A stretch of DNA of 64,000 nt from Escherichia phage FH3, in the sequence record OR886155.1. One strand, 5' to 3'. The notes under the pieces are model-generated. The model searched no databases. It was not told the DNA's origin and was given only the letters and a program-made list of their open reading frames with translations. This document shows, in pieces, positions 42,876-63,505 of this stretch. Each line of letters opens with the position of its first letter. Positions within the stretch are counted from its first letter, which is position 1. A program made the position numbers and the translations under genes.

Positions 42876-43718
42876 TTACCAAGATTTATCTAACCATGTC
42901 CAGTCGAACAGGTCTTCCGGAGCCTGACCAACAAAGAGCAGCCGAGCATTCTCAAGCATCTTCTCTTCATCTTCAGTATCGAACTTCTTATAGTATTCCA
43001 TTCGTACTATATGATACATGGTCCACTTATCTGTAACACCAGCCAACAATTTAGCTGCTGCCTTCTTCCCTATTCCTTGACGTCGAAGCTGAAGCTTACC
43101 GCCCCACATAACTTCTTTACGTTCCCCACATCCGGGGATATTATCCGTACCATCTCCAATCAACATTTGATAGAAGAAGTTTTGCCATGAGACTAAATCG
43201 GATACATAGTGAGGAGGAACTTCTTTCTGTCTTTCTCCACAAGCCCAGCGATAATGCCATCCGGGAGTTATCAACAAATCCTTGTCTCTAGTACAGATGA
43301 TAGTATTCTTATCCCTACGTTGTCTTTCAGCTAGTGCATCATCAGCTTCTCTCCCAAAGACCTCAATGTATTCGTACTTGGCTTTAATGTAATCACCAAC
43401 GTTTTGCCAGTGAAAAGGTCTTTCTCCGGGAGGTCTGTTTGCCTTGTAGTCTTGCTGCTTAGCAACATCAAAACGGAAGTTACCGCCTTCGCTGAAGTAG
43501 AACACAACCTTACTGCAACCTGAGCGAGCAATGATTGTATCTATCTTGTACTGAAGTCGTTCAATCATGAAATTGTAATCAACTGGAACACGTCCTGTGT
43601 CAAGAAAGGGATGCTCCTGAGTAAGAGCACCCACTTCATATCGAAGAACGTCAGCATCCACTATAGCAACTTCAGGGAGCTTAACTTCTTCCATAAATAT
43701 CATCCTGAGCTTGAGCAA
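42876..43718 (-). CDS. 5'-3' exonuclease / flap endonuclease (FEN family)
   Basis: PIN-like N-terminus with acidic residues and H3TH-type GDGTDNIPG motif; true start may be an internal Met near 43694-43703. Confidence 0.75.
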   Translation of the reverse strand: MLKLRMIFMEEVKLPEVAIVDADVLRYEVGALTQEHPFLDTGRVPVDYNFMIERLQYKIDTIIARSGCSKVVFYFSEGGNFRFDVAKQQDYKANRPPGERPFHWQNVGDYIKAKYEYIEVFGREADDALAERQRRDKNTIICTRDKDLLITPGWHYRWACGERQKEVPPHYVSDLVSWQNFFYQMLIGDGTDNIPGCGERKEVMWGGKLQLRRQGIGKKAAAKLLAGVTDKWTMYHIVRMEYYKKFDTEDEEKMLENARLLFVGQAPEDLFDWTWLDKSW

Positions 43719-44570
43719 TAATCCAATCTAGATCTGAGACTGCTGATTCGATGGTTGAGTCATTAAACAGTAGATATGTTTTTCTCTGTTCGCCTTCAAT
43801 ATATGAACGAGAGTCTCCATCAAAAGAGCAACCATCTCTAAGAACTTGGACAACTTGGACATGGAAATTCTTTTCTAGTTCTCGTACCTCTGCATCAAAA
43901 CCTCCGTCAGTAAACACGACAATATCATCCTGACCTAGCCCTTCTTGTTTGATACTTTTTACAGCAAGATTCCCCATATGATTGTTGCCAAACATAGGTT
44001 TTAAGAAGTCTTCACTTGTAGAAATCATCAAATCTCTTACAGACTTCCCTCCCCATTCTGGTCTATGTTTTTCTTTCCATTCACGATCTTCATAGCGTGC
44101 TAGAAAATTTTCTAGAGGTATTCCTAGTGCAGCAGCAGCTACTCTGTACATTGGCTCCTTGAAGGATTTGGTTGAATATCCGTGGTGGTATGAATGGGCA
44201 TTGACCCAAGCATTGGCTATCGTATCTTTACCACAACCCGGAGGCCCATTAAGAATTACTACTAAAGGCTTATAGTGGGAATCTCCCACCATATTGGTCA
44301 GTGCTGGATTGCCTTGAGATTCCATTTCTAATTGCTCCGTGTGGTCATGTGAGTAATCTACTGGAGAAGTTTTGTTACCAGTAACTTTAGGTAAAATCGC
44401 TCTAGTTGTTTCTACGTATCTACCGCCATCAACATTGATTTGAAACTCTACAAGTTCATTCTGTAATTCATACCCTGATAAGTTGGATAGCTCCTCCAAC
44501 TCATCTCTGACGAAATTTAAATGTTTGATTTTAATTGCAAGAGCTTTCTTTAAAGCTTTTACCTCTTCAT

Positions 44571-44580
<10 letters not shown>
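43681..44580 (-). CDS. P-loop nucleotide kinase (dNMP kinase-like) with N-terminal extension
   Basis: NGPPGCGKDT P-loop and IVVFTDGG Walker-B-like segment. Confidence 0.55.
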
Positions 44581-46066
<1,486 letters not shown>

Positions 46067-46067
<1 letters not shown>

Positions 46068-50690: not shown

Positions 50691-50843
50691 TTAGTGCGTA
50701 TGCATCCAGTTAAGTCCAATCTGACAATCAGATGCCAGAGGACATTCCATGTTCAAGTACTCACCAGCTTTCTTAACGCAAAGCTCAGTGTGCTCTTTGA
50801 GTTTCTGTACATCGTTACGATTAACTGAGAACTGGCCCTCATC
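50691..50843 (-). CDS. DNA polymerase (family A), exon 2
   Basis: Encodes DEGQFSV...MECPLASDCQIGLNWMHTH*, matching the Pol A C-terminus after motif C; a stop lies immediately upstream in frame, so it cannot be an independent gene. Confidence 0.7.
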   Translation of the reverse strand, partial: DEGQFSVNRNDVQKLKEHTELCVKKAGEYLNMECPLASDCQIGLNWMHTH

Positions 50844-51441
50844 CATTTATGTTATTCCCAAATTACTTCGGGTATCGGACTATATCATAACAGCATAGCT
50901 AATTTGCTGTTGTTGGCGCTTCGAGGGTTTCCCTGTTAACCCCCTACTCCCGCAGGATAGTCTCTACACTTTCCACTTTCGAATCCATCTACAAGCGATT
51001 CCAAAGCTCACACCAAACCTTTCTGCAAGAGCAACACCAGTGCATTCATTGTTAAGCCAGAACTCTTTAGCAGCATTCTGTCTTTCTCTGTTTCTGCCAG
51101 TGTTTGACTCGATAGCATGTGCACTACCTTCTAAGATTTCTAGATGGTCAGTATTGCAACAAGCTCTATTCTTGCATTTATGGTTAACTTCATAACCGTC
51201 AGGGATGTTTCCAAATTTCTCTTCCATGACGTATCTGTGATACATGACCCATTTGCCATTTATCATTTTTCGAAAGTAACCATCTTTATTTAGTTTGTGT
51301 GAGATAGGGATGATACATCCTGTGCTAGTTGTTTCTAGCACTAGATCTTTCTTAGCCATATCACCTCCTAATAGCTTAGCTCGGTATTGCCCTCAACTTA
51401 ATGGTCGGGTTTCACCGAGTTCACCAACTTTTACATGCACA
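50844..51441 (-). mobile_element. group I intron in the DNA polymerase gene, carrying an HNH ORF
   Basis: 5' exon ends ...AUGCAU; intron nt 11-16 GUGCAU can form P1 with a U-G pair at the splice site; GACUA (50958-50963) and GAUAUAGUCC (50877-50886) match R/S (P7) elements; last intron nt is G; ligation restores ...IDMH-DEGQ... Confidence 0.7.
50964..51359 (-). CDS. intron-encoded HNH homing endonuclease
   Basis: YEVNHKCKNRACCNTDHLE motif; own RBS AGGAGGTGAT; entirely inside the predicted intron. Confidence 0.7.
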   Translation of the reverse strand: MAKKDLVLETTSTGCIIPISHKLNKDGYFRKMINGKWVMYHRYVMEEKFGNIPDGYEVNHKCKNRACCNTDHLEILEGSAHAIESNTGRNRERQNAAKEFWLNNECTGVALAERFGVSFGIACRWIRKWKV

Positions 51442-53142
51442 ATGAAGTTTATGCATATCAATTACCTTAGCACAACGAACCTTATCTTTCTCAATCCACT
51501 TGTTAAGGAACATCATAGCATATTTCATAACAACAGCACCAGCACATTGCAGGAGTGTGTTAAGGGCTTTATGAACCATAACTTTACCAGTGGCATCTCG
51601 TCTCATTGTAATCTTACGACCATCAACACCAATCAAGTATCCTTGAGCAGCTTTCTCTGTCATACGATCAATGAGGATTGCAATACATGGGTTCTCTGCC
51701 AAGAAACGTGCTCGCATCACTGAACCTTCGTCAGCCCCACCACCTACAATTGAACCAAGCTTAGCATCGCCAGCACCGTAGTTGAATGCATAGATAAACG
51801 TTTTAGCGTTGTCACGAGTAGGAAGACCAGCAAGTTTCTGGTTGTGGGAGTGGATATCACCTTCAAGGAGAATATCACGATACATAATAGCAGAAGCTAA
51901 ACCACGTTCTGCCAGAGCTTTCTTAGCTGGGTTGTTCTCTTCAATTGCCTCAGCAAGCATATCCCTACACTCTTTAATGAGGTAGTGAGCGAGCATACGA
52001 AGTTCAAGCCCAGAACCATCATACCCTAAGAATACTTCTTTACCAGCGGGTATGTAATATTTGTAAGCACCTACAGGTTTGTCTTTCTTCCCCGGTTTAC
52101 CTTTCTCATAAATTACGTTAGTACCTTTTCGTATATAACAACCATCAGGAACAACGTTAGTAATAACGAAAGGACGAGAATGATCACTGTCTGAGTTATA
52201 GTCAGACTCAAACAAACTGCGACACTCGTGACCAAACAAACCACGGGAGGGAATATTAACCACGATACGATGTTTGAATCGAAAAGTCGGCGTAGCGCAG
52301 CTGTTAGCTTCTGCCGAAAGTTTACCATCTTCGCGTTCCTTTGCTATGAGTCCACTGATAAGACCTAGCCTGTGAGCCGCTACAACGCGTCTCTTAAGCA
52401 AACTTCCGACACTCCCTAGCTCACCCCCTAACCCTTCTTCAAGAGTCTCCTCGAGGTTTGTAGGAGCTGTAGGCCACTTGTTTGAAGTGGCTAGTGCTTT
52501 CTTAATCTCATCAAACGTTACAGGATTACGTCGATTCGGGTTTAATCCCAAACCAAACACGTAAGCCTTCATATAGTTCTTAGTTTTAAACCTAAAATGC
52601 TTTTCTAAGAACTTCTTAATATCAGCGTCAACCATCTCGGCTGTCTGCTTCTGCTTAGCATTGCCTCGCATCCAAGCAGTATACCATGCTTGGTATGTTC
52701 CATACTTTCGCATGTCTTTCTTAATTTCGAAAGTATTCCAAGGTTTCTTAGATACGTTAAACTCTGGAGGAAGAAAGCCCTCATCCATAAGAGCTTCTTT
52801 AACTCGTGCATCTTTCGATGGGTCAAAGTCTACGTATTCGACACAGGTGAAAGCTCCACCAATATCTTCTCTCTTCAGCCCAACCCTATCACAATAGGCT
52901 TGAGGCCACTTCTGTAAAGCTCCAGACTTCTTAAACGGCTTCATGTAAGTAGAGCCATCTAATCTCATCTTAGGTAAGAGAGGAATCAACTCTCTGTCAA
53001 TATTAACAATAATCTCTTTAAGGAGGTGAATATACCACCGAGCATTTCTTCGGTTGAAACTCACTCCGTGCTTTGCTTGCTTAGAGATTATATCAGCGAC
53101 AGTCATCTCTGTCAAAAATGGAAGAGCGTCCGGGTTGCTCAC
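51442..53142 (-). CDS. DNA polymerase (family A), exon 1
   Basis: Motif A GYDGSGLELRMLAHY and motif B RDNAKTFIYAFNYGAGDAKLG present; motif C absent from this ORF; the last 9 codons of the listed ORF are intron sequence. Confidence 0.85.
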
Positions 53143-56362: not shown

Positions 56363-57605
56363 TGTTTACCTCAGAAATTATAAGGGTCATAATCAAGAGA
56401 ATCAAACCCATAATCTGAGCTATTAAGGTATCGGCGCTTTAATCCGAAATCTTCGTAGTGAGGTTTTCCAGGAACAGTTTTGCCTTTGGTTATGTTCGTT
56501 ACTTGACTAGAAGAGAAAAGGTGAACCCCTTCAGAAGTCCTAGCAGAAGATTTTTCTCCTTTCTTAACCACTTTTCCTTTTTTGGCCCATCCTTCGAATG
56601 TTCTATATTGCATCAAAACTCCTTACCACAATGTCCATTCAGTAAGGGACCACAGAGAGTCCCCTATGTGGGTGTTGTCATGTCGGATGAGATCTTTGAT
56701 TTTATCAACATCAGTCAAGTGAGTTACATTCAAGATATCCTCAACATCTGGAACATGTTTGAATATGGCAACAATGTTATTACCATCATCAGAAAACTCC
56801 TCAAGCACATAAACTACACTCATGCGACATTAGCCTCTTTATGAAGTCTGTAAATAGCTGTCGCCATGCAAGCAACAGCCTCGTTGTGTGGGAGGTGCAT
56901 CCCTGTAGAACCATCCCAATCTTTGAACTCACTGTCAAAGACTCCGGTAGGCTCTGGATACAGAGCTTGCAGCTCCACTAGATCGTTAGCAACTTGTTGC
57001 CATTTATCGTCAGACCAGATAGGGTCATCCAACCAGTAATACAAATAGGAATGGATGATCAATTGCCTTCTGTGCCGATTAATTACTTCAGCGGGACTTA
57101 TCTCACTTCCATTTGAAGTCCTAAATGTATTACTGTCAATCATTACGAAAATTCCCGTTCTGTTAAAGAGTGCTGAACTTCATTATCCGGAGACCAAACC
57201 TTTTCTCCATTTACCAATTTCTTAGCATCTTCATCTGAAGCACAATCTAAAGCAGGATTATCAGGTGTTGGCTTCTTTGGAAATCTTTTCCAAGTCCAAA
57301 AATATCCGTCATCGTCTTGGCAACCAAGAGTCCACAAAGTTTTCATTTCACAACCTTAAATTTAAATGTTGTTGGGTGAGAATAATTCCACACAGTCAAG
57401 CATGTAGTAGGAGTAACCAAAGGGTTTGGCTGTTAAGTTGGAAACCATTTTATCAAAAAGGGATTGAGAAACATCCTCTTCTACTCCAACATCCTCAAGC
57501 TGCTGCTTTGTAGGATAGTCAGTGAAAGAGCAAAGAATTTCTGTATCCTCTCCTCTGTCTGCATCCTCAACACGACTCAGAATCCAAATATTCTTCCTAA
57601 CCATT

Positions 57606-58262
57606 TTAATTCTCCAAAGTTTTCTTCAGAGCTGCCCACGAGATTGGGTAGAGCTTAGCCATCTCTTCATCTACGGATTTAGCAAACACTCGAACTTCAT
57701 ATTGAGCGTGAGAGGATAGTCGCTGACGGCACAACTCAAACCAGCCATACAAAGAACCAGTCCACACCCACTCAGTGATCATCCCCTGAGGAAGAACAAA
57801 TCGAGCTTGCTCTGGTGCAATAAATTCAATCAACTTATCATATGCTGCTAAAGAAGCTTCATATGCATCGTTAATCAACATTAATGCTTCAGCTCGCTCT
57901 CCGTCGATGAGTTGAATCCCTGAACCTGCATGGAGGTCCGAAGGTCTCGCAAAAATCTCTTTAGGGATGAAGACTTCAACTGCTCCATCTTTATACCGCC
58001 GGGACATTTCGTTCCACGAGAATCCAACCTGATGCTTTCCCAGCTGTCTCGCAATTGCGATAGGTGCTTTGCATCGGAAACTGACTTGCGGGTGTCGGAA
58101 TGGAGTACAGTGTTTTTCCCGTGCAAGGAAGTTGATAAGTTTTGTGTCTCTCTCATTTAAGTCACCTTCTCGAACAACACCGAAAGATACTCTAGCTGCA
58201 TTGACTACAGATTTGTCACTTCCCATTGCTTCAATCAGTGTTGCTTGTAGTTGTTCGTTCAA
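57606..58262 (-). CDS. thyX: ThyX-like flavin-dependent thymidylate synthase homolog with atypical signature motif
   Basis: HCTPFRH...KAPIAIARQL...SWNEMSRRY fits ThyX; the position where I expect the RHR motif reads K-H-Q. Confidence 0.7.
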   Translation of the reverse strand: MNEQLQATLIEAMGSDKSVVNAARVSFGVVREGDLNERDTKLINFLAREKHCTPFRHPQVSFRCKAPIAIARQLGKHQVGFSWNEMSRRYKDGAVEVFIPKEIFARPSDLHAGSGIQLIDGERAEALMLINDAYEASLAAYDKLIEFIAPEQARFVLPQGMITEWVWTGSLYGWFELCRQRLSSHAQYEVRVFAKSVDEEMAKLYPISWAALKKTLEN

Positions 58263-58701
58263 TTAAAAGTTCCTTTTTTCGATTCATGTAAACTTGATGA
58301 GCTTCTTCGGCAGTTCCATACATACCTAGATGTATATCTACTTTATCAATACAAATAACAGCCCTATATCTGATAGTGCCTGATCTGTATTTGACAACCT
58401 TAACACCTTGAAGCCCTGTTTCCTTGTTTGATACTCTAGCCCCGAACTGGTTGTGGCAGTTTGTCGAGGTGTCCACCAATCTCAAGTTCTGTATTGAGTT
58501 GTTCTTCTTATTTCTATCGATATGGTCTATCTGAGAAGAAGGCCATTCTCCATAGTAAAAGAACCATGCCACTTTATGAGCTTTGTGTACTTTCCCTTTA
58601 AACCGCAGGGTTATGTACTTACTTCGAGTTCCTCCTAATTTCTTACCTTTTCGAAAGAACTCTCCAGTTTCAGGGATATACTCTAAATCATCGATTACCA
58701 T
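58231..58701 (-). CDS. HNH homing endonuclease with AP2-like DNA-binding domain
   Basis: SQIDHIDRNKKNNSIQNLRLV motif; C-terminal ...HLGMYGTAEEAHQVY. Confidence 0.7.
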   Translation of the reverse strand: MVIDDLEYIPETGEFFRKGKKLGGTRSKYITLRFKGKVHKAHKVAWFFYYGEWPSSQIDHIDRNKKNNSIQNLRLVDTSTNCHNQFGARVSNKETGLQGVKVVKYRSGTIRYRAVICIDKVDIHLGMYGTAEEAHQVYMNRKKELLIERTTTSNTD

Positions 58702-58966
58702 TCAGAGCTGTATCCAAAAAAGCTTTCAGGTTTGCTTCAGTCTGCATACCAGAAATGCTGTAGTGTGCACCACTATTACGGTCAGGCACAATGAAAGCAG
58801 GGATGCTTCGTACACCATACTTAACAGCTTGTTCACGACCATCACCTTCAAGGATGTTAATCTCTTCCACTTCTACATCAAACTCCTTAACAACCTTCTC
58901 AAAGGTAGGAGCCATTGCTTTACATGGAGCACATTGATCACTATAAAACTTAATTACTTTAGACAT
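58688..58966 (-). CDS. thioredoxin
   Basis: 92 aa, FYSDQCAPCK active-site CxxC, thioredoxin-length. Confidence 0.75.
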   Translation of the reverse strand: MSKVIKFYSDQCAPCKAMAPTFEKVVKEFDVEVEEINILEGDGREQAVKYGVRSIPAFIVPDRNSGAHYSISGMQTEANLKAFLDTALNGNR

Positions 58967-58974
58967 GTAAATCC

Positions 58975-59154
58975 TTATGCAGTCAGGAGGTGAAGCAGGA
59001 ATGGGATAACAACAGCTATGATAACCATGATGGTTGATGCTGTTTGAATCTCACCTTTCTTATCAGGGGTTTCTTCAATAAGCTTCCCAGAAGCCCAATA
59101 AATACCACCACCAATAAAGATAGCCCAAATACCCCATACGATTGCTGATAACAT
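58975..59154 (-). CDS. small two-TM membrane protein (59 aa, below ORF-track cutoff)
   Basis: My translation MLSAIVWGIWAIFIGGGIYWASGKLIEETPDKKGEIQTASTIMVIIAVVIPFLLHLLTA. Confidence 0.3.
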   Translation of the reverse strand: MLSAIVWGIWAIFIGGGIYWASGKLIEETPDKKGEIQTASTIMVIIAVVIPFLLHLLTA

Positions 59155-59214
59155 ATATCTATATCCTTATAAATAAGTTCGCCCCACCTCGGGTTAGGAG
59201 ACAGGGCGGAGGTT

Positions 59215-59793
59215 TTAGTAAGACACATCACCACTTGAATGGGACATGTTGCTCTTGACGAAGTAGCAATACTTGCCAAGACCTTCATTAATTTCTTGAA
59301 GCATACTCTGATCGACAGGGTAGGTGGCTAAATCACCATCAAACTCATCCATCTTCTCAATAATACACATCAAGGTCATGCACATATCAGAGAGCATACC
59401 GTCCATGTCTAGATCAGCATTACCCTCTGAGAACCAAGCATGAGAGAGGTAGTTAGCTGCTGTAGCATCCACTTTAACACAGTGGTAACGCATACGTTCA
59501 GCAATACGATCTCCTACCTGTCGTGCGTAATCTTCCAGCTCATCAAACATACCATGAACACCTTGAAATCCTGCACCAGAGACGTTCCAGTGGTAGTTTT
59601 TAGCTTTGATATGCAAGAGTTCCATGTTAGCTTGTAAGCAGCTCAGGATGTGTTCTAGGCTGTTTCCACTAATCATACCCTGCATTGTTTCAAGGCGAGA
59701 GATTGATAGGTCGGACCGGTCTAACATGCTATAACTGTCACGACCGATCTCAGGTAAATCAAAAACATTCTTATGCATTTGGGTTTTCTCCAT
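59215..59793 (-). CDS. Dps/ferritin-like protein
   Basis: LQANMELLHIKAKNYHWNVSGAGFQGVHGMFDELEDYARQVGDRIAERM resembles the Dps four-helix ferroxidase region. Confidence 0.5.
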   Translation of the reverse strand: MEKTQMHKNVFDLPEIGRDSYSMLDRSDLSISRLETMQGMISGNSLEHILSCLQANMELLHIKAKNYHWNVSGAGFQGVHGMFDELEDYARQVGDRIAERMRYHCVKVDATAANYLSHAWFSEGNADLDMDGMLSDMCMTLMCIIEKMDEFDGDLATYPVDQSMLQEINEGLGKYCYFVKSNMSHSSGDVSY

Positions 59794-60100
59794 CCAGTTC
59801 AACTGAGTTAGCAACATTACGTGCGATATTATCCATTACCTGCTGAGTAATTACGATGCAGTTCTGTGGGTCTACTGACTTAGAACGCCCCATTTCAGGG
59901 TCATACACCTTAACTCGCTTAGCAGTTGAACCTGTAACCTGAAGAACCTTCAACAGATATCCCTGATTACCAATAGACCAAGCAACAACATCACGATTCT
60001 TGATAAAGCGACCAAGCATATCACGATGATAAAACTGTTGCATCACCTTGGATTTTGTAATCTCTTCAGTGGGCGGGGCCACTTTACTCAAATCTAACAT
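59771..60100 (-). CDS. hypothetical protein
   Basis: ORF track. Confidence 0.3.
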   Translation of the reverse strand: MLDLSKVAPPTEEITKSKVMQQFYHRDMLGRFIKNRDVVAWSIGNQGYLLKVLQVTGSTAKRVKVYDPEMGRSKSVDPQNCIVITQQVMDNIARNVANSVELDGENPNA

Positions 60101-60172
60101 AACTCTCTCCTGTAAAATACAAATTCTTGTTGTACTCTATATACATTTGAGAGTTACCATATCTACTACCAA

Positions 60173-60382
60173 TCAGTAATAAATTACTTTAGACATAAAA
60201 GAACCCGAGTTAGGGTCTTCGTACCAGCGATGAATGTCAGCACTTTTAACTGTTCCAATTAAAGTTTTCATCTTCTTCTTAGCAATACGAGCATCTTTAC
60301 GGGTGTCAAATAATTTGATATTATCTTTACCTAGATGGTGTCCATCTTCCCAAACAACACGAACAGCCCATATCTTTTTCAT
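60173..60382 (-). CDS. small basic protein, paralog pair member 1
   Basis: MKKIWAVRVVW...; adjacent to a similar ORF. Confidence 0.35.
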   Translation of the reverse strand: MKKIWAVRVVWEDGHHLGKDNIKLFDTRKDARIAKKKMKTLIGTVKSADIHRWYEDPNSGSFMSKVIYY

Positions 60383-60576
60383 TAGTAATGTACCTTTCCG
60401 CTGATATAAACACGACCAGAGGAATACTCTCTGGCCTTATGAATGCTAATACTCTTAGTTAAGTCCATATTGAACATAGACTTTTTAAACTCTCGAGCTT
60501 GTTGGCGGGTAGGTAGTGCAGTCATAGTCATACCACCTGATGCCCACTTAATCTTCGCTAACCAGAATTGTCTCAT
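60382..60576 (-). CDS. small basic protein, paralog pair member 2
   Basis: MRQFWLAKIKW... Confidence 0.35.
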   Translation of the reverse strand: MRQFWLAKIKWASGGMTMTALPTRQQAREFKKSMFNMDLTKSISIHKAREYSSGRVYISGKVHY

Positions 60577-60629
60577 TTATCTTTCATCCACATTAAAGGA
60601 GAGATGAAGTCTACTTCTCATAGACTTCG

Positions 60630-61100
60630 CTAGGAGTTTTGCCTCTTCAAGAGTTTTACTCCATACACAGACTCACGTTTACCATCTTTTTGAACAGATA
60701 CACAGAACGTCCCGCCCTTCTCTTGGTAGACATTCTTAACTCCTAGCTTGTTATCAACCCTTGTCTTAGCATTCTGACTGTTCTCAGAGTGAGAGCACTT
60801 TCTCAGGTTAGTTTCTTCTAGGTTTTCTCTGTTACCATCGGCATGATCTATTTGATATTCATCCGATAAATCCTCACCAGTATAAAGAACAAAAAGAATC
60901 CTATGATTATGGACACGAACTCCTCCTAAGGGAATTTGATAATACCCATCTTTTGTGAGCTTGCCATCAGGTTTACCTACTATATCATTAGCAAACTTAC
61001 TAGGCTTCCTTTTCCAAGAAAGCCCTGAAGGGGATGACATGTCTATATTAAAGAGATCAACTACTTCATCATAGCATATCAGCATGATTTGTTCCACCAA
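60630..61100 (-). CDS. HNH homing endonuclease
   Basis: YQIDHADGNRENLEETNLRKCSHSEN motif. Confidence 0.7.
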   Translation of the reverse strand: MVEQIMLICYDEVVDLFNIDMSSPSGLSWKRKPSKFANDIVGKPDGKLTKDGYYQIPLGGVRVHNHRILFVLYTGEDLSDEYQIDHADGNRENLEETNLRKCSHSENSQNAKTRVDNKLGVKNVYQEKGGTFCVSVQKDGKRESVYGVKLLKRQNS

Positions 61101-61623
61101 AAGCTTTTGTTGGCCCTTGTTGGTTATTGTATGAACCTTTAGTTGCGTAGCTATCCTCTTCCGAGGATGAGTGTTTAAAGAATTCCATCTGACCGATACG
61201 CATTCCCGGCTTGATCAGCAGAGAGTGGTGCTGTAGGACGTTCTTGAATTCCATAGTTAACTGACTGCCATGCCAACCACCGTCAGCATGACCAGCGTGC
61301 ATGTGCTCTAAGAAGCAACGACCGACAGTAGATCGTAGCATGAAGTCACAGCTAATGTTGTCTGGAAGGTTGAATGTCTCCACTGTATGAGCTAAGAAAC
61401 ACTCACCCGGTTTGATCACCAACCCTTCCTCTGGAATCATAACCTCATTGAAATTAGGGGATTCTTTAGCAGAGATATCAACAACCCCATTAGCTGCACC
61501 TTCCATCAGAACACGATCTCCAATACGAACATCAATGCTGGAGGAATTAACAGCTGAGTGTGGTGCATCAATAACACCATCATCAATTAATTTATGTAAC
61601 TCTGGGCTTCCTAGTAAACTCAT
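61069..61623 (-). CDS. dCTP deaminase/dUTPase-superfamily enzyme (Dcd-like)
   Basis: IDVRIG, RSTVGR, GWHG...LEF.N, KPGMRIGQ and YNNQQG segments match the Dcd layout. Confidence 0.75.
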   Translation of the reverse strand: MSLLGSPELHKLIDDGVIDAPHSAVNSSSIDVRIGDRVLMEGAANGVVDISAKESPNFNEVMIPEEGLVIKPGECFLAHTVETFNLPDNISCDFMLRSTVGRCFLEHMHAGHADGGWHGSQLTMEFKNVLQHHSLLIKPGMRIGQMEFFKHSSSEEDSYATKGSYNNQQGPTKAFGGTNHADML

Positions 61624-61632
61624 TCTTATTCC

Positions 61633-62946
61633 TTAGTTATTTGTTTCCATGTCAAAAGAGATTCCACGACCCGCTTCATCGGCAAACCGAACTGTACGGG
61701 TTTGAGGTTCTAATACTTCAGGGTTGTTGGCAATAAAGCGATCAGCGAGATTATCTACCACATCTTGGGCCACACCTTCATCAGTCCACACAGCCCTAAC
61801 AGGTGCGTTGATATCACCAACAGCAAAACCCTGACCAGAGAACTGGTGACGGCTAACAGTCAAGCCGTTTGATCGACCACGAGAAGGACTAGACATCCAT
61901 TGCTCCATAGAATCACTTGTAATACCAAGAGCTTCTTCAAAAGATGTTCTACGAGAAGAGCTTAGATTTCGTGCTTCATTTGCTCGACGTCTTGTAGGGG
62001 CTACAAACACCCCTTCAATTGCATTGTGTCGGTTAGGTTCGTCTTCTCTACCAAGCAGATCACCACCTGTATTAGTTGTTAAATTTGTCAACCCTTCAGA
62101 CCAATACGCATGAATCTGACCGGAACCGTGAAGACTAGACATAATCTGAATCTCTTCATAAGGGATTCCAAAAAATCGACTCATGTCTCGGTTAACACAA
62201 TATAGAGCACTTGTTGTATCCTCAATAAGAGCAACCTGACCTATTTCATTAACAAGATGACTGACTGGCTGAGGTGTAGGAAGGTATCGAGTTTGGGCCA
62301 TATATTGATATGCAACAGATGGGGCTGAGAATCTTAACACTTGTGAATTAGGCCACTTTTTGTGAACGTATCTGATTTCACGACTAGAAACAACCACAGG
62401 GCAAGGGGCGGTCATAGCTAAATACCCATGAGGGGTCATGAATAAGTTGTCAAGAGTCATCGCACCACGGCACATCATAGGAAAGTTATCCAATACCTCT
62501 TCGATAGAAGTAGGATAATTAAACATGAATTGGATACGAACCCCATTCCACTGAAACTCAATAATATCAGTGAATGTTAATTGAGAACCCCCAGCATAGG
62601 ATTCGTTTGTAGCTTCAGCAAGAAGAGATGAATACTCAATATCTTGAGACTCAAGCCACTCTTTAACGTTACTTTCAACTTCTCGTCCGAGATCTTGCCA
62701 CTGCTCATGACGGATGAAAGTATTTCGAGTTCTTGGGGCCTGTCCTCTGACAATAAAGATATCAATGTCATGCGGAGCTGTGTTATTAAGCACAGCATCA
62801 CGAATAGCCCCACCAGTGATGATAGGACAAATACAGTCTGGAATCAAGTTGTTGTTAATCAGCTGTTCAATGAAGTGACGACCAACAGTGATATCCGGTT
62901 GTTGAGCAACCTTATCTTCAATTCGGTTAATCGGGATAACAATCAT
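61633..62946 (-). CDS. nucleotidyltransferase with CCA-adding-enzyme/poly(A)-polymerase-type head motif
   Basis: ITGGAIRDAVLNNTAPHDIDIFIV corresponds to the G-G-A-V-R-D ... D-x-D head signature; the remaining ~380 aa not recognised. Confidence 0.5.
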   Translation of the reverse strand: MIVIPINRIEDKVAQQPDITVGRHFIEQLINNNLIPDCICPIITGGAIRDAVLNNTAPHDIDIFIVRGQAPRTRNTFIRHEQWQDLGREVESNVKEWLESQDIEYSSLLAEATNESYAGGSQLTFTDIIEFQWNGVRIQFMFNYPTSIEEVLDNFPMMCRGAMTLDNLFMTPHGYLAMTAPCPVVVSSREIRYVHKKWPNSQVLRFSAPSVAYQYMAQTRYLPTPQPVSHLVNEIGQVALIEDTTSALYCVNRDMSRFFGIPYEEIQIMSSLHGSGQIHAYWSEGLTNLTTNTGGDLLGREDEPNRHNAIEGVFVAPTRRRANEARNLSSSRRTSFEEALGITSDSMEQWMSSPSRGRSNGLTVSRHQFSGQGFAVGDINAPVRAVWTDEGVAQDVVDNLADRFIANNPEVLEPQTRTVRFADEAGRGISFDMETNN

Positions 62947-62947
62947 T

Positions 62948-63505
62948 TTACATTTTCCAATATAATGAAGGTGGGTCGTAAGGGTCAAATCCTGTGATTT
63001 CACACAAGAAAAGATAAACCTTAACAGTTAAGTTAACGTCCTGTTCACAATAAGTAAACATATCTTCAGTGAAAGCATCCCATGCTTCCTCTTGCTCACC
63101 ATAATCGCCCTTAAGTTCTCCTAAGAACTCACCCCACTGCTTCAAACCATGACCCCTTGGGCCACGTCTAGGGTCGCCTTTCGGATACTCAGGACTGTCA
63201 CCAATACGGTCAGGTTTAAGATATCGACTAAGACATAAAGTGTCAAAGACGTTAAAATTATATTTAATCAAAGAGGGATACATCTTCTTCAGAGCAGGTA
63301 AGTCGAAGTCAATAATATTATGACCCACGAGCACATCTGCTTCTGTCAGTTTACGAATCCCGTCTTCGATTTGGTGAGGCCGATAGCCCCACCTTTCACC
63401 AGTTTCAACATCGAAGATATAAATACACCATACTTTAGTTATGTCATCGTACAGTGCATTACTCTCGATATCGAATGCAAACACTTTCTTCTTTTTCTTT
63501 ACCAC
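62948..63505 (-). CDS. stand-alone 3'-5' proofreading exonuclease (DnaQ/Pol A exo-like)
   Basis: Exo I FAFDIESN, Exo [15 protein letters not shown], Exo [11 protein letters not shown]. Confidence 0.7.

Follow-up and report, generated by a model that had tools for sequence, protein, structure and literature searches.

We analyzed a 64,000-nucleotide stretch of DNA from Escherichia phage FH3 (sequence record OR886155.1; the whole stretch is referred to as the window), and in particular a minus-strand gene cluster at 57606-61623. The cluster includes a gene for a flavin-dependent thymidylate synthase (ThyX), the signature motif of which is altered. The source phage is a Kuravirus (Gordonclarkvirinae) coliphage; the segment 57000-62000 is 99.7% identical to Escherichia phage 1-6af, and its identity to SU10, ES17 and about 95 other records is approximately 93%. 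In the order of transcription, the genes encode a nucleotidyltransferase, a deoxycytidine triphosphate (dCTP) deaminase (Dcd), an HNH endonuclease (HNH2), three small hypothetical proteins, a Dps-like protein, a small hydrophobic protein, a thioredoxin, a second HNH endonuclease (HNH1) and ThyX (Table 1). Phages SU10 and 1-6af have the same genes in the same order (for the HNH genes, see below), annotated as dCTP deaminase, DNA-binding protein, thioredoxin and thymidylate synthase. The initial annotation of this DNA had reported clustered ThyX-like, thioredoxin, Dps-like and Dcd-like genes with two HNH genes interleaved, and all of these identities and coordinates hold. Near-identical GenBank records already have the cluster annotated, and it is an ordinary member of known families. 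Judged from sequence, the phage ThyX is most probably an ordinary thymidylate synthase, which would convert deoxyuridine monophosphate (dUMP) to thymidine monophosphate (dTMP) within a conserved block of genes leading from dCTP to thymidine triphosphate (dTTP).

Table 1. Positions of the thyX-dcd cluster and associated features in the FH3 window (aa, amino acids; ORF, open reading frame; CDS, coding sequence)
Feature	Position	Strand	Evidence
thyX, flavin-dependent thymidylate synthase, 218 aa, TTG start	57606..58262	-	PF02511 3e-43; TIGR02170; 100% identical to 1-6af ThyX
Extended ThyX motif region ARQLGKHQVGFSWNEMSRRY	57993..58052	-	Translation; alignment to T. maritima and T. thermophilus RHR
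K76-H77-Q78 codons	58029-58037	-	Within thyX
HNH1, HNH_3 homing-type endonuclease, free-standing, between trx and thyX	58231..58701	-	PF13392 1.6e-13; phrog_99
Thioredoxin (trx), active site C-A-P-C	58688..58966	-	PF00085 1.5e-13; trxA/thioredoxin in relatives' annotation
Small hydrophobic protein, 59 aa	58975..59154	-	ORF; syntenic CDS in SU10 (gp066) and 1-6af
Dps-like (ferritin-superfamily) protein	59215..59817	-	PF00210 2.8e-7; phrog_3636 3e-55; PDB Dps matches
Conserved hypothetical, 109 aa	59771..60100	-	phrog_10984
Two small hypothetical ORFs, 69 and 64 aa	60173..60576	-	ORFs; syntenic small CDSs in SU10 and 1-6af
HNH2, HNH_3 homing-type endonuclease, directly downstream of dcd	60630..61100	-	PF13392 1.7e-9; phrog_99
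dcd, dCTP deaminase, dUTPase-superfamily type, 184 aa	61069..61623	-	PF22769 1.3e-31; TIGR02274
Nucleotidyltransferase, outside the cluster under study	61633..63003	-	phrog_12715 2e-248; weak PF01743 0.0019
Protein called deoxynucleoside monophosphate kinase in relatives	43687..44574	-	97% identical to SU10 gp030 (tblastn)

Motif and active site of the phage ThyX

The protein scores 148 bits against Pfam PF02511 (cut-off 24.8) and 128.3 bits against the NCBIfam thyX equivalog TIGR02170 (cut-off 87.9). Its AlphaFold2 model, a monomer without ligands, has a predicted local distance difference test score of 95.4, and the top 50 matches in a Foldseek search of this model against the PDB were all Thermotoga maritima ThyX (TM-score 0.77-0.84). 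Comparison of the gene with its SU10 orthologue gave a ratio of nonsynonymous to synonymous substitution rates (dN/dS) of 0.12, indicative of purifying selection.

An alignment by eye had placed K-H-Q at the position where the R-H-R motif is expected, and this register proved to be right. Both HMMER and MAFFT align the phage segment ARQLGKHQVGFSWNEMSRRY with T. maritima ARQWFRHRIASYNELSGRY. A phmmer search of all PDB chains pairs the phage segment with ARQWFRHRIA-SYNELSGRY of T. maritima and ARQWFRHRTA-SVNEISGRY of Thermus thermophilus, and addition of these two proteins to an alignment of 116 homologues with MAFFT gave the same register. R78, H79 and R80 of T. maritima correspond to K76, H77 and Q78 of the phage enzyme, with one extra residue ahead of the conserved Ser (K-H-Q-X8-S versus R-H-R-X7-S). 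There is no second R-H-R motif anywhere in the phage protein.

The description of R-H-R as a substrate-binding motif in the initial annotation is correct only in part. According to the ThyX literature, the motif hydrogen bonds with the AMP phosphate, the ribityl and the FMN phosphate of flavin adenine dinucleotide (FAD); it is chiefly a flavin contact and does not specify the nucleotide. At the isoalloxazine, the first Arg of the motif faces N1/C2=O and stabilizes the anionic reduced flavin, and the same residue does contribute to the binding of dUMP. Lys76 retains the positive charge at this first position.

Conservation at the active site was counted in the MAFFT alignment of the 116 homologues, which are 37-90% identical. 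The mapped positions are given in reviews as contacts of dUMP, flavin or folate. The folate-stacking His (H53 of T. maritima, H51 of the phage) is found in 114 homologues, as are E86 (E85) and R90 (R89); Q75 (Q73), S88 (S87) and the Tyr lid Y91 (Y90) are each found in 115, and E144 (E151), R147 (R154) and R174 (R181) in all 116. The residues that bind or activate dUMP in T. maritima (Q75, S88, R90, R147 and R174) are thus all identical in the phage enzyme. Crystal structures of T. maritima mutants in the list of PDB matches cover S88A, R90A, R174A/K, H53A/D, E144R and Y91F, in agreement with a view of these positions as catalytic among workers on ThyX. The flavin contacts are more variable. 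The position of R80 is Gln in 78 of the 116 homologues and otherwise Lys, Thr, His or Val; that of R165 is Tyr, Ala or Leu (Tyr in the phage); and that of G89 is Arg in 108, including R88 of the phage enzyme.

It had been proposed from the altered motif that the enzyme acts on a different nucleotide or performs a different C5 chemistry. Such an enzyme, fed by Dcd, might halt at the exocyclic methylene and release 5-hydroxymethyl-dUMP, or use a cytosine or ribonucleotide, with a noncanonical pyrimidine in the virion DNA as the outcome. The motif is truly deviant, with two substitutions and a one-residue insertion, and the ThyX mechanism proceeds, according to the literature, via an exocyclic methylene intermediate; both points speak for the proposal. 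However, the changed positions are flavin contacts, the dUMP residues are kept, the same motif is seen throughout the clade and the equivalog cut-off is passed. The invariance of R181, the Arg that would read O4 of uracil, and of the other dUMP contacts argues against a cytosine substrate in particular.

The coordinated changes in the clade at the flavin contacts R80 and R165, together with the change of G89 to Arg, could have another meaning. Enzymes with K-H-Q-X8-S-R-R-Y may carry out the same conversion of dUMP to dTMP and handle the flavin differently, by weaker binding of FAD, by another pose of the flavin through R88, or by the use of FMN. This would refine an assignment as thymidylate synthase rather than exclude it, and would imply different kinetics and inhibitor sensitivity. 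The literature describes RHR and the equivalent of T. maritima R165 as contacts of the FAD phosphate and ribityl, in keeping with such a difference; yet T. thermophilus ThyX, with a canonical RHR, has His at R165, so this position is not diagnostic. We regard a distinct handling of the flavin as unlikely on the whole, but as an option that deserves to be taken seriously. In the ordinary thymidylate synthase that we favor, Lys stands in for the Arg next to flavin N1/C2=O and dUMP, a flavin-phosphate Arg has given way to Gln, and the clade-specific R88 (G89 in T. maritima) may compensate for the loss of the latter.

Distribution of K-H-Q among cellular and viral homologues

The K-H-Q spelling is shared widely. 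Among the 120 closest database clusters, which extend to 54% identity, 119 have K-H-Q and the other has K-S-Q. In a library clustered at 50% identity, the 150 best-matching representatives are 39-55% identical to the query, and here K-H-Q is found in 74, K-H-K in 15, R-H-T in nine, R-H-Q in six and exact R-H-R in one. Nearly all ThyX homologues surveyed have S-R-R-Y where T. maritima has S-G-R-Y. Close relatives in the phage collection come from Kuravirus, Salmonella 7-11, Erwinia, Yersinia, Pseudomonas, Vibrio, roseobacter and Pelagibacter phages.

With a 25-sequence ThyX alignment as the query, a scan of GTDB genomes, in which each species was represented by one, returned 80 bacterial or archaeal loci, of which 45 have K-H-Q. 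We annotated the gene neighbors at five of the K-H-Q loci. On the closed 1.79-Mb Spirochaetia chromosome OZ251568.1, the thyX gene is flanked on one side by genes for citrate synthase, an aldo-keto reductase and a short-chain dehydrogenase, and on the other by pyrD (dihydroorotate dehydrogenase) and a pyrF-pyrE fusion (orotidine monophosphate decarboxylase/phosphoribosyltransferase); the ORF layout around thyX in a metagenome-assembled genome (MAG) of a second spirochaete is identical. In two Chloroflexota, the gene adjoins that for a 2-oxoacid dehydrogenase E2 subunit; it lies between AcrB/HlyD and IspH/MlaA in a Nitrospinota MAG, and between an enolase-superfamily gene and an aminotransferase gene in Poribacteria. 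No phage-like genes were found among the annotated neighbors of these cellular loci. Most simply, the chromosomal K-H-Q thyX would be the thymidylate synthase of the cell. The presence of K-H-Q in chromosomal genes of several phyla, in one case beside pyrD and pyrF-pyrE, also counts against an altered substrate or chemistry, as a role in making a modified base would be senseless there.

One further K-H-Q locus, labeled Prochlorococcus, was rejected as cellular; it is a phage fragment with what is, by eye, a gp32-like single-stranded-DNA-binding protein, and it was not counted. When the Spirochaetia ThyX was used as the query, many close relatives were found on contigs of approximately 43 kb, probably phage genomes, which makes exchange of thyX between cells and phages likely. 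In the sequences surveyed, K-H-Q is a signature of a large ThyX clade that is both cellular and viral, and is not specific to phages; K-H-Q-X8-S-R-R-Y is probably the ancestral spelling in this clade.

Other spellings were seen as well. In six TM6/Dependentiae/Babeliales loci, as well as in some unclassified proteobacterial MAGs, the motif is R-H-T or R-S-T with the X8 spacing, and a group of mostly Neomarinimicrobiota loci (L077-L084) has the canonical R-H-R-X7 together with S-R-R-Y. Two metagenomic ThyX proteins, P0122 and P0195, have an intein with an apparent HNH domain inside the motif, between K-H-Q-x-G-F (R-H-V-V-G-T in P0195) and S-W-N-E. In two more, P0260 and P0261, the BLAST match is split at this same point; insertions at other places occur in further long homologues.

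As far as these alignments tell, the ThyX motif is more plastic than its textbook signature. RHRX7S is unreliable as a signature for a very large branch of the family, and motif-based filters may silently drop that branch; one published ThyX phylogeny discarded any sequence in which more than two residues departed from the motif. The K-H-Q deviation is also easily over-interpreted by those who read the sequence by eye.

A proposed route from dCTP to dTTP and the reported restriction resistance of the phage group

The Dcd protein scores 100.3 bits against the equivalog TIGR02274 (cut-off 92.8). Its best solved relatives are 2qxx and 4a6a (9e-16), followed by Escherichia coli Dcd (1xs1, 3e-10). 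The phage RST...GR...MEF aligns with RSS...AR...LEF of E. coli, and we take the aligned Ser, Arg and Glu to be the catalytic positions of E. coli Dcd. The entry 2qxx, presumably the Mycobacterium tuberculosis enzyme, outranks E. coli Dcd as a match, and the record of one relative of the phage labels Dcd as 'dUMP-forming'. The mycobacterial Dcd is described as bifunctional, a dCTP deaminase:dUTPase.

We infer from these identities that the region is a conserved early or middle block of nucleotide metabolism, which would channel deoxycytidine nucleotides to thymidylate. The deamination of dCTP by Dcd would yield dUTP, and the host Dut would provide dUMP if needed; a Dcd that is bifunctional, as is its closest solved relative, would form dUMP directly. 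ThyX, with reduced flavin, methylenetetrahydrofolate and NADPH, would methylate dUMP to dTMP, which the phage kinase (a RefSeq label) and host kinases would convert to dTTP. The protein so labeled has no Pfam match, and its name is the RefSeq annotation of relatives. The E. coli host has a G+C content of approximately 51%. That of the window is 41.9%, and a shift of the pool from C to T would for this reason be useful to the phage. The same G+C argument is made in the literature for chlorovirus PBCV-1. The block would then be a routine phage shunt from dCTP to dTTP, and the ThyX motif in itself gives no reason to expect a surprise.

Several points weigh against this interpretation. The literal signature R-H-R-X7-S (Myllykallio 2002) is not found in the phage ThyX, a deviation that is clade-wide and retains the His and the Ser. 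Mutagenesis of M. tuberculosis ThyX is reported to have found the ThyX motif to be required for activity, and our literature search found no assayed ThyX of the K-H-Q clade. The main gap concerns the cellular evidence, which consists of neighboring genes; a second thymidylate synthase could be encoded elsewhere in those genomes. Finally, the BASEL study found Gordonclarkvirinae to be remarkably resistant to restriction-modification, with no known modification pathway or inhibitor, and the window keeps its target sites for EcoKI (12), EcoRI (9), EcoRV (27) and EcoP1I (91). For these four enzymes we reject site avoidance as the cause of resistance, since their sites are undepleted, as are those of HindIII (39) and HpaI (30); AluI sites number 399 in the window. 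With sites present despite the reported resistance, some mechanism of protection is unaccounted for.

The undepleted sites would also fit a phage whose ThyX makes an unusual nucleotide, and the BASEL authors themselves suspect a covalent modification behind the broad resistance. A different pattern holds for CCWGG, which is strongly avoided (7 sites versus approximately 72 expected), and for PstI, NcoI, CACGTG and TGGCCA, the sites of which number zero in the window versus roughly 5-18 expected. This avoidance suggests that the phage DNA is exposed to restriction at CCWGG and at several G+C-rich palindromes, contrary to what a protective base made by ThyX would lead one to expect. The termini of phiEco32 were mapped by restriction profiling, according to the literature, so that at least some enzymes cut that DNA. 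All known pathways of thymidine hypermodification begin, again according to the literature, with a hydroxymethylase of the ThyA family and not with ThyX. In the scanned ORFs and the SU10 annotation, which leave many small ORFs without assignment, we detected neither a dUTPase nor an enzyme that degrades dTMP or dTTP, nor a ThyA-like hydroxymethylase, nor a kinase or transferase for base modification; the downstream enzymes of a modification pathway are thus among those missing from this set. On all of this evidence, a ThyX with altered substrate or chemistry is very improbable. A noncanonical base in the DNA, which had been thought possible on account of K-H-Q, is not indicated by that motif.

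The BASEL authors flag the nucleotidyltransferase as a possible DNA-modification gene and, from its presence together with Dcd, suggest DNA with deoxyuridine in place of thymidine (dU-DNA). The two enzymes would flood the pool with dUTP, to be packaged as in PBS1, and ThyX would be inactive, repressed or irrelevant. According to the literature, the known dU-DNA phages indeed depend on a dCTP deaminase of their own, and dU-DNA is refractory to enzymes with T in their sites. The ThyX gene is unmentioned in the BASEL text, however, and ThyX is conserved, under purifying selection and intact at its mapped catalytic positions apart from RHR. The characterized phages of this kind use zinc-dependent enzymes of the dCMP-deaminase family along with a dTMP phosphatase or a dTTP pyrophosphatase, whereas Dcd in FH3 is of the E. 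coli (dUTPase-superfamily) type, and neither of the two accompanying enzymes was detected. We give dU-DNA hardly any credence.

The nucleotidyltransferase has a GGAIRD...DIDIF head that resembles Pol-beta and CCA enzymes, and its true start is probably the ATG that gives 437 aa. Its 44 homologues are all at least 73% identical and all Gordonclarkvirinae-like. It has no sequence match in the PDB and no PADLOC hit, and its AlphaFold2 model (confidence score 34) is unusable. A CCA-adding role found no support, there being no tRNA gene in the window. In SU10, the segment 52523-59933, just past what corresponds to the right end of the window and upstream of the primase/helicase, is annotated as encoding a gamma-glutamyl cyclotransferase, a RimK-like ligase, a glutamine amidotransferase, an amidoligase and a COOH-NH2 ligase. 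An amidoligase system of this kind has reportedly been predicted computationally for phiEco32-like phages.

These genes allow a more speculative scheme. ThyX might stop short of full reductive methylation and, with Dcd, the nucleotidyltransferase and possibly the amidoligase/glutamine-amidotransferase/gamma-glutamyl-cyclotransferase cluster, supply a precursor of modified thymidine. If true, this would account for the resistance of Gordonclarkvirinae to restriction and be the first DNA-modification pathway based on ThyX. We see only a slim chance of it, and retain the ordinary thymidylate synthase as the preferred assignment.

Neighboring genes, mobile insertions and comparison with known systems

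The Dps-like protein matches 36 Dps chains in the PDB, the best being the Dps/ferritin-family 4m35 (2.9e-9), against which the ferroxidase-site residues HW...H...D..AER are retained. Its scores with the NCBIfam Dps models are below the cut-offs, and we therefore take it for a divergent member of the family. Its dN/dS against SU10 is 0.09; relatives have a 564-bp version annotated, the start of which is at 59778. Both this protein and the thioredoxin travel with the nucleotide-metabolism block as conserved passengers. The 109-aa hypothetical protein has no match in Pfam, NCBIfam or PADLOC.

Both HNH genes are sporadic, putatively homing-type selfish insertions that would lie outside the nucleotide pathway. 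HNH1 is an insert of 440 bp (58262-58701) that 1-6af and SU10 lack and that only 5 of approximately 98 related records contain; HNH2 is absent from SU10, present in 1-6af and found in 10 of these records. The arrival of HNH1 rewrote the start of thyX from ATG-AAT, as in 1-6af and SU10, to TTG-AAC. The last 32 nt of the HNH1 ORF lie within thyX in another frame, AAGGA lies 8-9 nt upstream of the new TTG, and thyX may be translationally coupled to the HNH1 gene. On its other side, HNH1 overwrote the last codons of trx (...LNGNR versus ...LSNK or ...LRNK), the end of which overlaps the HNH1 start at 58688-58701. A scan of 57000-62000 with Rfam gave no match, from which we conclude that neither HNH gene is intron-borne. 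Next to HNH2, the dcd allele that FH3 shares with 1-6af differs from that of SU10 at roughly one third of positions or more, as estimated by eye from the translations, and the megablast homology to SU10 breaks across dcd between flanks of approximately 95% identical DNA. This looks like a mosaic replacement of the dcd allele adjoining HNH2.

Farther away, the DNA polymerase gene is interrupted (50694-53142, minus strand): residues 1-564 of SU10 gp051 are encoded at 53142-51451 and residues 565-614 at 50843-50694. The insert of approximately 607 bp has a third HNH_3 ORF (50964-51359) and a sub-threshold Rfam match to the group I intron family RF00028 (50856-51036; 26.2 bits versus a gathering score of 50, E 2.6e-4). 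It is probably an intron-borne homing endonuclease. The minus strand also encodes a stand-alone 107-aa domain Ia (NAD+-binding) of an NAD-dependent ligase (56820-57143), a SLOG-family (YAcAr) protein (44574-44963) and a Macro domain (45630-46067). Together, these domains suggest functions related to NAD or ADP-ribose in the early region.

Among the characterized enzymes closest to the phage ThyX is that of T. maritima (TM0449; PDB 1O26, 4GT9 and 8REO). The folds superimpose with TM-scores of 0.82-0.84, the sequences are approximately 31-34% identical and the lengths are 220 and 218 aa; H53, Q75, E86, S88, R90, Y91, E144, R147 and R174 are all identical in the phage enzyme. The two differ where R78-H79-R80-X7-S88-G89-R90 is replaced by K76-H77-Q78-X8-S87-R88-R89, and where R165 and N169 are replaced by Tyr and Glu. 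The ThyX enzymes of M. tuberculosis and Helicobacter pylori share with the phage protein the dUMP contacts Arg199, Ser105, Arg107 and the Tyr108 lid, and Arg87 probably corresponds to phage R72. In these enzymes, by contrast, RHR (residues 95-97 and 74-76, respectively) sits on the FAD phosphates, the ribityl and the isoalloxazine, where the phage has K-H-Q, and the sequence similarity of M. tuberculosis ThyX to the phage enzyme is weak (E 1e-4). A 239-aa ThyX-family chain, PDB 4p5a, matches the phage ThyX at 2e-16 and is more remote than the T. maritima and T. thermophilus enzymes. This chain is presumably Streptomyces cacaoi PolB, the UMP/dUMP C5-methylase of polyoxin biosynthesis; it would then be the known precedent for altered use of substrate in the ThyX family.

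Dcd resembles the mycobacterial dCTP deaminase:dUTPase and E. coli Dcd in being of the metal-independent, dUTPase-superfamily type with RS(S/T)...R...E aligned, and differs from them in its distance (9e-16 to 2qxx and 3e-10 to 1xs1). With the dU-DNA phages PBS1, PhiR1-37 and DSS3_VP1, FH3 has in common a phage-encoded dCTP deaminase at the head of the pathway; their DNA is resistant to restriction, and restriction resistance is also reported for Gordonclarkvirinae. Those phages, however, have a deaminase of another family and enzymes that destroy dTMP or dTTP, whereas FH3 encodes an apparently intact thymidylate synthase.

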